From positions 1-60,945 of the forward strand of contig QEVT01000006.1 in the NCBI GenBank assembly GCA_003576755.1: a stretch of DNA of 60,945 nt. The letters are read 5' to 3'. The notes below the pieces were generated by a model that did no database searches, was not told the origin of the DNA, and saw only the letters and a list, made by a program, of their open reading frames with translations. The DNA is from a bacterium. GTDB lineage: Bacteria > Chloroflexota > Anaerolineae > Epilineales > Epilineaceae. Within the stretch, counting starts at the first letter, position 1. Each line of letters opens with the position of its first letter. This document shows positions 13,601-16,600 of the stretch, in pieces. Both the position numbers and the translations under genes were made by a program.

Positions 13601-16600
13601 CGCTTCGGCGTCGCGCTCGGCTTGGGGAAGCGCCGTCAGGTCGACCACGGGCACGGGGACGGCCGTCGGCGGCGCCACGGCCTGGAGCGGCACCCCTTTC
13701 TGCCACGCGAAGTGGGTGCGCAGCGTGGCATGGCGCGCCACGATGGCGCCGAGCGCCCGTGCCAACGCATCCACGTCGAGAGGGCCGTCCAACCGCAACG
13801 CGGCCGGGATGTTGTAGGTCGCCAGCCCGGGAGCGAAGCGATCGATGAAGAGGAGGCGCTGCTGGGCGAAGGAGAGGGGCGGCGCGGCCGCGGGATCCAG
13901 GGCGGTCATCGGGGGTCTCGGCGCGTCCGCGCAACCGTCTGGCACGGGCGGTGCCAGCACATGCGCGGTGGGGTCGAGATCGCGCCCGATCGGCCAGGGC
14001 AGCGCGTAGCCAAGCGCGGTGGCGACCCGTTGCGCCGATCGGCCGAGCGGCCGCGGCAGGCCGGCGTTGCGCCAGGCGTCGGCCAGGCCCGGATCGATGC
14101 CGCGATGGTTCAGGAAGTTCGGGTCGCCGATCGCCCGCGACGTGGGATGGATGCCGTCTGTCATCCGTGGCCCTTCGTAGGGCGTCAGAAGCTCCGGCCG
14201 GAACGCGATCCTGAGGAAGTCGCATACGTCGCGCATGACGCGCTCGGGCCGCGTGACGAGGTCCTCGAAGCGCACACGGTGGTATCGCCGGGGGTCGATC
14301 TCCCGAGCGAGGTCGAGCACGTTGCGATTGCATGCCGACCAGATTTCCTCGCCCAGCGCATACGGATCGGCCACCGGCGTGGCGAGCATCGTGTGCATGC
14401 GGCTGCGAACGTACGAGTCGATCATCGCATAGGGATGCCGCACCAGGTGAACGTAGTGGACGGATTCGAACAGCTCCTCGGCCCGCCGCAGGGCGCGCGG
14501 GTCCAACGCGTACGATGGCGACTTGTCCACCAGTCGGCGCGGCGCGCACCTGGCCTGAACCTCGCGATACACCTCGGCGATGGACACGTCTCGCGCGACC
14601 CAGTCGGCGGCCAGCCGTTCGCTCGCCTCGGCGTCCAACCCGGCCAGCTCCATCATGGCGCGCGGCAGCCCTTCCACGAGATAGGTGCGCGTTCCGCCCC
14701 TGGAATCGAGGCGGTCGCGACTCGGGTGCAGGCTGGCCTGGCGCCCCGCCATGCTGTCGTACGGCAGGAGGTGCAGCTCGGGGGGGCAGAAGAGGTCGGG
14801 GTGACCGGCAAGCATGACCCGGAGCAGCGTCGACCCGGCCCGTGGGCTCGACAGGACGAGGACAGCGGCCGGCAGGCGCGCGGCGGCGGGGATCGAGGCC
14901 GTGCTCGCCGCGGGCACGGGCGTGTCGACGACGGCGACCGTCCTCGCGCGGCGGGGAGCGCCCGCGGCATCGTCGTCGGCCGCCTTCGCGCCGGCGTTCG
15001 CCGTACCGTTGGCCGTGCCGGCCGCGCTCGCAGCGAGCTCCCGGGCAGCCGCCGCAGACCATTCGCCCACGAGATAGTCCGCCAGCGCCGTCACCGACGG
15101 TTGCTCGAAGATCTCGCGCGGGTAGAGCGTCAGGCCCAGGTCGCGATCCAAGCCGCGGACGAGCTCCATCACCATCATCGAGTCAAGGCCGAGATCGAGG
15201 ACGCTGCGGTCCCCGGGGAGGTCGCCCGGGTCGGCCCGCAGGATGGCGGCGATGCGGGCGCGCAGGTCGCCGACCAGGCGCGCGGGCCGTTCGGCCTCGG
15301 GTGACGCGCGCAGCAGGTCGTCGAGCGCCCGCCCGGTGCCGGTGTCGGCCCTTCCGCCCACGGCAGCCCCGCCGCCCTCGCCGAGGCGCGTCGCGAACGG
15401 CGCGTCGTCGCCGAGCAGCCCACGCAGCGCCGACGCCTCGAGCGGCATCACGCCGACCTGAGCCAGATCGCGCTGCGCCATCAGAACGCCCAGCGCGGCC
15501 AGGCCGTCGCGGGTCGACAGCGCCGCGATCCCGCGGCGCGCCCGCTCCGCGGTCAGCTCGGGCCGCGCCGCCATGCCGACCTCGCCCCACGGCCCCCAGT
15601 CGACGGCCAGGGCGGGGAGCCCGGACGCGCGGCGCAGGTGCGCCAGCGCATCCAGGAACGCGTTGGCCGCAGCGTAATGGGCTTGCCCAGCCGAGCCGGT
15701 CACGGCCGTGAACGAGCCGAACAGCACGAAGAAGTCGAGCGGTGCACCCCGCAGCCGGTCGTGCAACAGCCATGCCCCCGAGGTCTTGGGGCGCATGACG
15801 GCAGCGAGCGCGTCCGGGTCGACGTTGTCGACGGCCGCGTCGCGCAGCACGCCTGCGACATGGACGACGCCGCGAATCGGCGGCCAGCCCTCGTCGTCGT
15901 AACCGCGCAGGAACGCGTCCAACGCCGCCGGGTCGGCGATGTCGACCGCTGCGGCGTGTACGCTGGCGCCAAGCGCCTCGATGTCCCGGACCGCCCTGAC
16001 GCGCGCGGCCTGCGGGTGGTCCGCGGCCAGGCCCCGCCATGCCCGGCGCGGCGGCAGCGGCGTGCGGCCCAGGAGCACGAGCCGCCGCGCGCCGCTTCGG
16101 GCCAGCCAGCGGGCGACCGTCAGGCCGAGATCGCCCAGGCCGCCGGCGATGACGTAGCTGCCGTCGGGGCGCAGAGCGATCGCGTCGCCGCCGGCCGGCC
16201 GCAGCTCGAACGGCATCAAGCGGGCGACGTGGCGTCGGCCGGCGCGGAAGGCGGCCAGGGTCTCGCCGTCGGGCGCGAGCAGTGCGGACGCCACCGCGGC
16301 GGCCGTGCCGGGTGCGGCGGCGCCGGTCACCGCGTCGAGATCGATCAACCCGCCCCACAGGCGCGGGTGCTCGATCGCGACCGACTTGCCAAAGCCCCAC
16401 AGCGGGGCTTGGGCCACGGCCGCCACGTCGTCGCGCAGGACCCGCTGCGCCCCGCCGGTGATCAGCCACAAGCGTGGCGGATCGGTCCCGGCATGCGACG
16501 TCCCGTTCGTCGAGCCGCGTGCCCGCGCCGCCGCAGCGGTCGCGATCAGCGCTTGGACGAGCACGAGGGCGCTGCCGCACCCGACACGTCCGGCGGCCTC

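Follow-up and report, generated by a model that had tools for sequence, protein, structure and literature searches.

In the curacin enzyme CurM and in olefin synthase (OLS), a sulfotransferase (ST) domain is followed by a dedicated thioesterase (TE), and hydrolysis, decarboxylation and expulsion of sulfate yield a terminal alkene; the ST-TE pair is of interest for hydrocarbon production and for polyketide synthase (PKS) engineering. To our knowledge these are the only members of the family to have been studied biochemically; the sulfate is a leaving group in both, and the ST is known only as one half of an ST-TE pair. What becomes of the sulfate when such an ST is followed instead by a condensation (C) domain is the question raised by gene G of the locus analysed here. 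The window (the whole stretch of DNA analysed, 60,945 nucleotides) belongs, to judge by relatives of RecR, to a Chloroflexota genome of 75% GC, and GC3 frame analysis places all its large genes on the minus strand. The sequence-only reading of this DNA had taken the ST of G for a CurM/OLS-type domain lying mid-line, and had proposed an HMM search, a structural alignment to the CurM ST and a search of genomes for other ST-C proteins as checks.

The ST domain of gene G and its place in the assembly line

Counted from the first listed start codon, G spans 10634-18871 (2745 aa). Pfam finds in it a KS (residues 1-373), a remnant of the KS-AT linker (376-525), a KR (904-1096) and a PP-binding domain, then Sulfotransfer_3 (1337-1558; E = 1.4e-27), Condensation (1665-2107), AMP-binding (2127-2469) and a second PP-binding domain (2638-2700). 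The ST thus stands directly after the ACP of a KR-bearing module and before a C domain, as the earlier reading had it, and all the motifs quoted there are present in the translation. In CurM and OLS, likewise, the ST is the domain next after the ACP, in a PKS module that contains a KR; in those proteins a TE follows, whereas in G no TE is fused to the ST, a C domain takes its place, and the chain gains two amino acids. The module is not terminal: two NRPS modules come after it, the first with an A domain whose code we take, from established Stachelhaus codes, to specify Gly, and the second a plain C-A-PCP with neither a TE nor an R domain. On these points too the earlier reading stands. Pfam detects no DH in the PKS module of G.

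Table 1. Features of the window, all on the minus strand, with the evidence for each.
Feature	Coordinates	Strand	Evidence or remark
Gene G, hybrid PKS/NRPS: KS-(AT missing)-KR-ACP-ST-C-A(Gly)-PCP	10634..19011	-	Pfam, translation, P0475, Logan contig L085
KS domain, Cys-His-His catalytic residues present	17753..18871	-	Pfam, motif check
KS-AT linker remnant, running straight into post-AT linker	17297..17746	-	Translation, Pfam, L019 comparison
KR domain, B-type (HVAGVLRD), catalytic Tyr (GQAHYAAAN)	15584..16162	-	Pfam, motifs
ACP (approximate limits), phosphopantetheine Ser in LGLDSM, aa 1231	15062..15274	-	Translation, Pfam, motif
ST domain, CurM/OLS family, PF13469	13990..14875	-	Pfam, BLASTP, profile, AF2 model
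Low-confidence part of 12-residue ST insertion, predicted disordered loop	14690..14722	-	Model residues 52-62, pLDDT <50
Condensation domain, intact HHVAADG	12551..13879	-	Pfam, residue comparison
Adenylation domain, code DILQLGLVWK (Gly, as assigned)	11066..12493	-	Pfam, code read-off
PCP of Gly module	10772..10960	-	Pfam
Final NRPS module C-A-PCP, A domain Lys2-like (SGLAHDPLLRD, NFYGATETPQAV)	7173..10637	-	
Alpha/beta hydrolase, distantly hydr2_PEP-like (TIGR03101)	6301..7176	-	94 bits, below cut-off
Alpha/beta hydrolase, distantly hydr1_PEP-like (TIGR03100)	5399..6304	-	95 bits, below cut-off
GT4-type glycosyltransferase (GT), stp1-like (TIGR03087)	4121..5398	-	186 bits, below cut-off
Discrete thioesterase, PF00975, 266 aa, five genes downstream of G	3324..4124	-	
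Six PKS genes upstream, feeding G	19055..59671	-	Order from upstream end
PKS genes 1-3: KS-AT-DH-KR-ACP; KS-AT-DH-cMT-ER-KR-ACP; KS-AT-cMT-ACP	within 19055..59671	-	
PKS genes 4-6: KS-AT-DH-cMT-ER-KR-ACP; KS-AT-cMT-KR-ACP; KS-AT-DH-ER-KR-ACP	within 19055..59671	-	

Taken alone, the ST segment matches both Sulfotransfer_3 (E = 1.5e-29) and Sulfotransfer_1 (7e-6). In BLASTP it is 48% identical over 293 aa (E = 2e-112) to the crystal chain of the CurM ST of curacin A (4GBM; the reference sequence used, P0002, is identical to 4gbm_A), and an ST-domain profile run against the PDB retrieves 4gbm at 6e-139 and the Synechococcus PCC 7002 olefin synthase ST, 4gox, at 4e-121. The AF2 model (pLDDT 88.5) superimposes on 4gbm with TM 0.90/0.94 and rmsd 2.1 Å, and on 4gox, to which the sequence is 46% identical, with TM 0.87/0.93. 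By sequence and model the three share fold and family, and the likeness to the CurM ST is far above chance. The next-closest solved structures, the tyrosylprotein sulfotransferases TPST1/2 (profile E about 1e-16, fold probability 1.0), share the PAPS-binding core at about 18-20% identity and act on protein tyrosines.

The ST of G keeps the SPRAGST PAPS loop, the Glu and His of PPELHLL, the Lys-Ser of VDKSP, the RHP motif and a later Ser. All are identical in 67 ST-TE homologues, and every column invariant in the alignment is kept. Given their invariance in the alignment, we take the Glu with its adjacent His and the Lys to have the catalytic roles reportedly assigned to them in the CurM ST (McCarthy et al. 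2012). The domain is one of CurM/OLS type, in agreement with the earlier reading, and is probably catalytically competent; the Pfam and model comparisons above correspond to the first two checks proposed there. What the alignment, and a BLASTP gap against the CurM ST, show as peculiar to G is a 12-residue insertion at about 14683-14718, predicted to be disordered. The upstream KR is, by its motifs (Table 1), competent and B-type, as had been judged, and by the stereochemical rule a B-type motif goes with a (3R)-hydroxyl.

The missing AT and the 5' end of G

Four features of the locus lie outside the earlier reading: a missing AT, five extra bases, the discrete hydrolase and thioesterase genes, and the Chloroflexota origin of the genome. 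The AT, about 310 aa in the homologue L019, is absent between the KS and KR of G, and there is no discrete AT in the window; the AT-less junction is not peculiar to this record, G being identical in independent Logan assemblies from 17652 downstream (aa 407 onward). Because of the extra bases, CCGCG at 18944-18948 close to the 5' end of G, the ATG at 19011 and the KS lie in different frames. This frameshift prompted a pseudogene reading of G, which was weakened by two other records: Logan contig L085 is in frame across the last five bases that it covers beyond the insertion site, and the database entry P0475 is an intact copy, identical from residue 47 on. Intact G starts at ATG 19011 and is 2790 aa long.

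Missing AT, 5-base insertion and the lack of PAPS-supply genes in the window all count against the reading that we prefer below. The first two could mean that the line is broken, with AT deleted and frame shifted, that no sulfated intermediate is made and that the ST is a relic. We consider this improbable: besides L085 and P0475, GC3 is 0.91 along G and 0.87 in the ST segment, like the remainder of the gene, no catalytic motif of KS, KR, ST, C or A is disrupted, and PKSs often have modules that lack an AT and are served in trans.

ST-C modules in other genomes

The search for other ST-C proteins showed that G is not alone in its layout, which is also found among uncultured bacteria, both in public genomes and in metagenomes. 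A literature search found no characterised KR-ACP-ST-C or A-PCP-ST-C module, which bears out the earlier statement that none was known. The best match in a profile scan of genomes is 54% identical to the ST, and among the 80 best genomic homologues 67 show the ST-TE arrangement. Three further genomes of Chloroflexota (L011, L019 and L027) encode collinear KS-AT-KR-ACP-ST-C-A-PCP proteins, 46-48% identical to G over about 2100-2200 aa from KR through PCP, and this conservation of the megamodule argues for a working unit. All three keep the AT that G lacks. L019 (Ardenticatenaceae, JACKBV010000001) shares with the line of G the Gly code, the ensuing C-A(Lys2-like)-PCP and a discrete TE; its last module carries a fused TE, whereas that of G's line does not. 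The two last modules are 47% identical over 1153 aa (C-A-PCP against C-A-PCP-TE), and the discrete thioesterase of the window, its only one, is 44% identical to that found after the L019 homologue. L011 and L027 look like systems of a single module, similar to olefin synthases, beside sugar-modifying genes; BLAST shows no similarity of the GT and hydrolases of the window to the GT-like genes adjoining these two. L027 also has a phmmer match to a PKS DH domain, in which the HxxxGxxxxP motif was not found. Further ST-C fragments are P0125 (Longimicrobiaceae), P0139 and P0149, and in the plasmid collection no record spans both ST and C.

Do the STs followed by a C domain differ from those followed by a TE? 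Six of them grouped in a first NJ tree as a distinct KR-ACP-ST-C clade, which was abandoned at a bootstrap of only 11/100; a functional split between ST-C and ST-TE enzymes is therefore not supported by phylogeny. Only one residue stands out between the two sets, an Arg in the C-terminal helix, remote in sequence from the conserved catalytic motifs.

Giant NRPSs of Acidobacteriota (Thermoanaerobaculia), Chloroflexota (Ktedonobacteraceae, Chloroflexales) and others hold a second kind of mid-line ST, in A(Ser)-PCP-ST-C modules. These STs form a separate clade (bootstrap 100/100) with the ST of G outside it. They share with it the PAPS loop, the Glu and the Lys; in the clade a Glu stands in place of the conserved His, kept in G, and a Thr in place of the Ser that follows the Lys. 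Here the ST is preceded by A-PCP, in G by KR-ACP, and as the A domains that load the carrier are Ser-coded (or Tyr-like) the substrate would be an amino-acid hydroxyl.

The CurM/OLS-type family abounds in ACP-ST proteins that stand alone and in bare STs, so the domain can work outside the KR-ACP-ST-TE frame. This leaves room for the ST of G to act on some other hydroxyl, or at another time, its position being merely architectural: in trans on a hydroxyl of an earlier module (the KS-AT-cMT-KR-ACP protein leaves one, the KS-AT-cMT-ACP protein a keto group), on the lipopeptide after its release, or on a sugar that the product of the adjoining GT gene attaches. We hold this to be a poor prospect, because a KR precedes the ACP in six of the seven PKS-type ST-C proteins, that is in all that reach upstream of the carrier (the seventh, P0149, begins at the ACP), and because the ST of G keeps all the residues shared with the CurM ST, which acts on the (3R)-hydroxyacyl-ACP of its own module.

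Retention or loss of the sulfate

The reading that we prefer, at a probability of about one half, is that the ST sulfonates the (3R)-hydroxyacyl-ACP, that an ordinary C domain passes the chain to Gly, and that the sulfate ester survives in the lipopeptide. Every KS domain has its Cys, and loading is therefore placed beyond the right edge of the window. The KS of G would add one malonyl unit to a reduced, C-methylated polyketide chain, the malonyl being presumably loaded in trans, since no AT is left in the module. The KR, judging by its motifs, would give the (3R)-3-hydroxyacyl-ACP, and the ST would then transfer sulfonate from PAPS to the 3-hydroxyl on the ACP as in CurM, a step suggested by the 48% identity and the key residues kept. 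In place of a decarboxylating TE, the C domain would join the 3-sulfooxyacyl-ACP donor to Gly-PCP, one more amino acid would be added through the Lys2-like A domain of the next module, and release would fall to the discrete hydrolases, of which that at 6301-7176 is a candidate release or transfer enzyme, or to the discrete thioesterase; the adjacent glycosyltransferase may pass the chain on. None of the components has a known activity that would strip off a secondary alkyl sulfate beta to an amide, and so the sulfate is most likely retained; the most likely product is an anionic 3-O-sulfated lipodipeptide or its glycoconjugate.

Embedded STs whose sulfate is kept in the product offer a precedent by analogy: OciA (cyanopeptolin 1138/oscillapeptin E) and DysB (dysinosins) (PMC2533009, PMC6520454). 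The view that an ST embedded in a PKS or NRPS means a terminal ACP-ST-TE thus holds for CurM and OLS, and as a general statement is incomplete. As described, OciA and DysB resemble G in having the ST built into an NRPS protein in which condensation goes on. They differ in substrate, a glyceric-acid starter brought in by an FkbH-like domain as against the KR-generated beta-hydroxyl of a polyketide, and at the E-value cut-offs used no FkbH-like domain is seen in G or its neighbours. That ST homologues without a TE probably serve to make sulfated metabolites has already been stated (PMC11730487).

Further considerations count against retention. A sulfate installed mid-line is costly if it is to supply mere charge, which a tailoring ST could add later, and CurM and OLS spend their sulfate as a leaving group rather than as a final decoration; the poor separation of ST-C from ST-TE enzymes in the ST tree is on this side too. 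In G, too, the sulfate might serve as an on-line leaving group, lost during or after amide formation by the C domain, a course that we regard as unlikely. Several points speak for it. Sulfation is purely activating in CurM and OLS; the PKS module of G has no DH; retinol dehydratase (1x8k) and sorghum LGS1 (22ga), sulfate-leaving enzymes of the sulfotransferase fold, are among the fold matches; Gly, the least hindered acceptor, comes after ST-C both in the window and in L019; and in the A(Ser)-PCP-ST-C clade sulfation followed by elimination would make chemical sense as a route to dehydroalanine. The outcomes, jointly with the reading itself unlikely, would be a 2- or 3-enoyl amide made without a DH, a beta-lactam closed through the amide nitrogen, or attack by another nucleophile. 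DH-independent elimination and intramolecular displacement had been put forward from the start as possible; the window lends them no positive support.

Several observations weigh on the other side. The C domain is a plain HHxxxDG enzyme, and comparison of the C domains following STs with 99 others brought out no sulfate-handling signature or group-specific residue (largest frequency difference 0.35). No TE is fused, and among the genes of the window none was recognised as a candidate lyase or sulfatase. An enoyl is ordinarily made by a DH, and if the DH matched in L027 is active a role for the ST in place of a DH does not fit there. Spontaneous elimination of an alkyl sulfate beta to an amide is not expected on chemical reasoning. 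A broader form of the idea, which we regard as doubtful, makes ST-C a general device by which a carrier-bound hydroxyl is sulfonated and the sulfate leaves after the next condensation: in PKS-type modules like that of G the result would be an alkene formed independently of a DH, or a ring closed by an N-C bond, such as a beta-lactam that takes in the Gly nitrogen, and in the A(Ser)-PCP-ST-C modules dehydroalanine. Were it true, it would be a sulfation counterpart to the phosphorylation and glutamylation routes of lanthipeptide biosynthesis.

Should the sulfate leave, the chemistry would be a new kind of on-line activation. Should it be kept, as we favour, these clusters would encode 3-O-sulfated lipopeptides and O-sulfated peptides that can be searched for by mass spectrometry, and the ST-C unit would be a portable means of sulfating a defined position of a chain. 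For either outcome there is a ready test system in the intact allele of 2790 aa or in the L019 homologue, which contains an AT. The CurM-type ST sits mid-line in the assembly lines of several little-studied phyla, and in at least two forms: one follows KR-ACP and has its active-site residues unchanged, the other follows A(Ser)-PCP.

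The sulfotransferase domain and its module

The large genes of the window (75% G+C) all lie on the minus strand, as judged by codon-position GC. The Pfam order of gene G is KS, KS-AT linker remnant, KR, carrier protein, Sulfotransfer_3, Condensation, AMP-binding and carrier protein, in agreement with the sequence-only reading, which had accurately placed a sulfotransferase (ST) domain in mid-line and cited motifs that are all found in the gene G translation. Sulfotransfer_3 matches aa 1337-1558 (E 1.4e-27), and the excised ST segment alone is also significant (E 1.5e-29).

A first homology search with the ST matched the CurM ST crystal chain (P0002, identical to 4gbm_A) at 48% identity (BLASTP: 142/293 identities, E 2e-112). 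A profile of 13 sequences ranked 4gbm first (6e-139), the olefin synthase (OLS) ST 4gox second (4e-121), and tyrosylprotein sulfotransferases next. The AlphaFold2 model (mean pLDDT 88.5) aligns with 4gbm at TM 0.90/0.94 and rmsd 2.1 Å, and with 4gox at TM 0.87/0.93. In an alignment of 216 domains, the window ST, six other PKS-type ST-C proteins and 67 ST-TE proteins are identical at the PAPS loop SPR[A/S]GST, at Glu and His within PPELHLL, at Lys-Ser within VDKSP, at Arg-His-Pro and at a Ser further on; the roles of these positions in CurM catalysis are reportedly those described by McCarthy et al. in 2012. The sole oddity, seen also by BLASTP against the CurM ST, is a 12-residue insertion after MAGRQASL, absent from 12/12 aligned relatives and for the most part predicted to be disordered (pLDDT <50). 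By every testable feature the domain belongs to the CurM/OLS ST family; it is not part of an ACP-ST-TE olefin-forming unit, since it has neither a TE after it nor the last place in the line.

Its neighbours appear intact: the KS has its Cys-His-His residues, the C domain carries HHVAADG, and the KR, competent as originally proposed, combines an LxD motif (HVAGVLRD) with its catalytic Tyr and should give a (3R)-hydroxyl. The A domain code, DILQLGLVWK, is one we take from established codes to specify Gly, as anticipated for the module after ST-C. ST homology and module context together give good support to the view that the ST would sulfonate the (3R)-hydroxyacyl-ACP of its own module; action on a different substrate, or at a different time, seems improbable.

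Coordinates of features in the window.
Feature	Positions	Strand	Remarks
recR	319-1572	plus	
Tail trio	4121-7176	minus	
Last NRPS gene	7173-10637	minus	C-A-PCP, Lys2-like A domain
Gene G	10634-18871	minus	
ST domain	13990-14875	minus	
ST insertion	~14683-14722	minus	
AT-less KS-to-KR stretch	16162-17746	minus	
Extra bases CCGCG	18944-18948	minus	
ATG in other frame	19009-19011	minus	
Six upstream PKS genes feeding G	19055-59671	minus	cMT-rich
Upstream module without KR	40455-45296		KS-AT-cMT-ACP

Integrity and setting of the assembly line

Pfam finds no AT in the gene G module, where the KS-AT linker passes directly into the post-AT linker. Alignment with L019, an Ardenticatenaceae contig, flanks a gap of ~310 aa that corresponds to the AT of L019, cleanly missing in G. 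From 17652 downstream (G aa 407 on), AT-less junction included, independent Logan assemblies match the window exactly. There is no discrete AT within the window. We infer that the extender unit of this AT-less module must be loaded in trans. The six upstream modules each have their own AT, malonyl-type (HAFH) in four of the five with a readable motif, and an unusual four of the six carry a C-methyltransferase domain. Every upstream KS, that of the first visible module included, has its active-site Cys, which places the loading module past the right edge of the window.

This record has no in-frame ATG, GTG or TTG before VGMGCRF. An ATG lies in another frame of the 5' region, put out of frame with the KS by five extra bases in a GC-rich run. 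These bases are missing from L085, a Logan contig of another run that reads LSPLKRAL in frame, and from P0475, a 2790-aa protein of the representative library with this same natural N-terminus, the same as G from residue 47 (one residue differs: RARLAAAE vs RARLSAAE). The frameshift is thus peculiar to this record, an error or a variant, and is not good evidence that gene G is dead; that the line has decayed in this genome is accordingly a poor bet. The cluster abuts dnaX-ybaB-recR housekeeping genes. The nearest named relatives of RecR come from Chloroflexota MAGs (Caldilineae, 79%; Anaerolineae/Ardenticatenales, 75%), and the window belongs to a Chloroflexota genome of very high GC, not to that of an actinomycete.

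Recurrence of ST-C in two forms

A search for proteins with both ST and C domains returned many, and domain mapping of those fetched gave 22 with ST-C. A search of 185,579 species genomes gave, in its best 80 ST matches, 67 of ST-TE type; of the others, three Chloroflexota contigs (L011, L019, L027) encode KR-ACP-ST-C-A-PCP, one encodes ACP-ST-C-A-PCP and one KS-ACP-ST-C; several more stop at the ST, the next gene being C-A in one. An exhaustive search of representatives added nine giant synthetases (4128-6979 aa) with ST and C matched in one continuous stretch; two of the nine have two STs. The mid-line ST, first taken to be singular, is less so than was held. The family is used well beyond ST-TE modules, as the abundance in metagenomes of free-standing ACP-ST didomains (~430 aa) and bare STs (~290 aa) indicates (e.g. 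contigs L038 and L082, proteins P0003 and P0007).

From KR to PCP, gene G is 46-48% identical to the three Chloroflexota proteins over ~2100-2200 aa. L019 shares with the window the Gly code, a Lys2-like C-A-PCP (14255-18469; 47% identical) and a discrete TE (44%), but has a TE fused to its Lys2-like C-A-PCP; it also has a PPTase. L011 and L027 resemble single-module olefin synthases with C-A-PCP where the TE would be. GT-like, hexapeptide-(acyl)transferase and DegT-type (sugar) aminotransferase genes follow immediately (L011, 6198-9172; L027, 14205-18085), which suggests a sulfated lipoamino-acid glycoconjugate as product.

The STs located after A-PCP group in a separate clade (bootstrap 100/100), with Glu at the conserved His and Thr at the Ser after Lys. 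They occur mid-line in giant NRPSs from Thermoanaerobaculia, Chloroflexales and other sources (P0121, P0128, P0130, P0141, P0147, P0390, P0395, P0415, P0429, P0454, P0456, P0470, P0500), with two STs each in P0395 and P0470. The upstream A code is readable in four: Ser (DVWH[V/I/F]SLVDK) in P0128, P0141 and P0147, Tyr-like in P0132 (Ktedonobacteraceae). By way of sulfation, A(Ser)-PCP-ST-C modules may lead to O-sulfoserine or dehydroalanine. Each PKS-type ST-C sequence has others of its type as nearest neighbours, with a bootstrap of 11/100 for the whole group of six and of 30/100 for the window, P0125 (a Longimicrobiaceae fragment) and P0149. A robust PKS-type clade in the ST tree was dropped at 11/100; given such weak values, the family claim rests on whole-module collinearity.

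Fate of the sulfate

As the sequence-only reading held, no TE is fused: the C domain directly follows the ST, and domain search finds no TE in the C-A-PCP gene that comes next. The A domain of that gene (SGLAHDPLLRD, NFYGATETPQAV) is of the Lys2 (alpha-aminoadipate reductase) type, with AHDPxxRD and YG[AS]TETxxAV; TIGR03443 scores 518 bits, under its cut-off. The tail beyond comprises a pair of alpha/beta hydrolases, one GT4 glycosyltransferase and then a discrete thioesterase. The hydrolases and the glycosyltransferase distantly resemble the trio hydr2/hydr1/stp1 of XrtA/PEP-CTERM exopolysaccharide loci, all below family cut-offs, a resemblance which hints that the lipopeptide may go to a sugar or polymer instead of simple hydrolysis.

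We give about even odds to retention of the sulfate in the product. The window yielded no candidate for a lyase or a sulfatase, no TE is fused, and the C domain of gene G shows no special feature (largest residue-frequency difference 0.35 vs 99 other C domains). Sulfate as leaving group in on-line chemistry is a lesser prospect, though a real one: the only characterised relatives known to us, CurM and OLS, use it so, the gene G module has no DH, the Ser-specific A-PCP-ST-C clade would suit sulfation-elimination, and sulfotransferase-fold enzymes with such leaving-group logic exist (1x8k, 22ga, fold matches of the ST model). Retention is documented for the embedded STs of OciA and DysB (PMC2533009, PMC6520454), and sulfated products have already been predicted for ST homologues without TE (PMC11730487).

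In the accessible literature we found no characterisation of KR-ACP-ST-C or A-PCP-ST-C, as the sequence-only reading supposed for ACP-ST-C. The mid-line ST is a real, intact and recurrent but uncharacterised variant in the deployment of a known domain. It offers a clear experiment, whose outcome would be either a new class of sulfated metabolite or new on-line chemistry.
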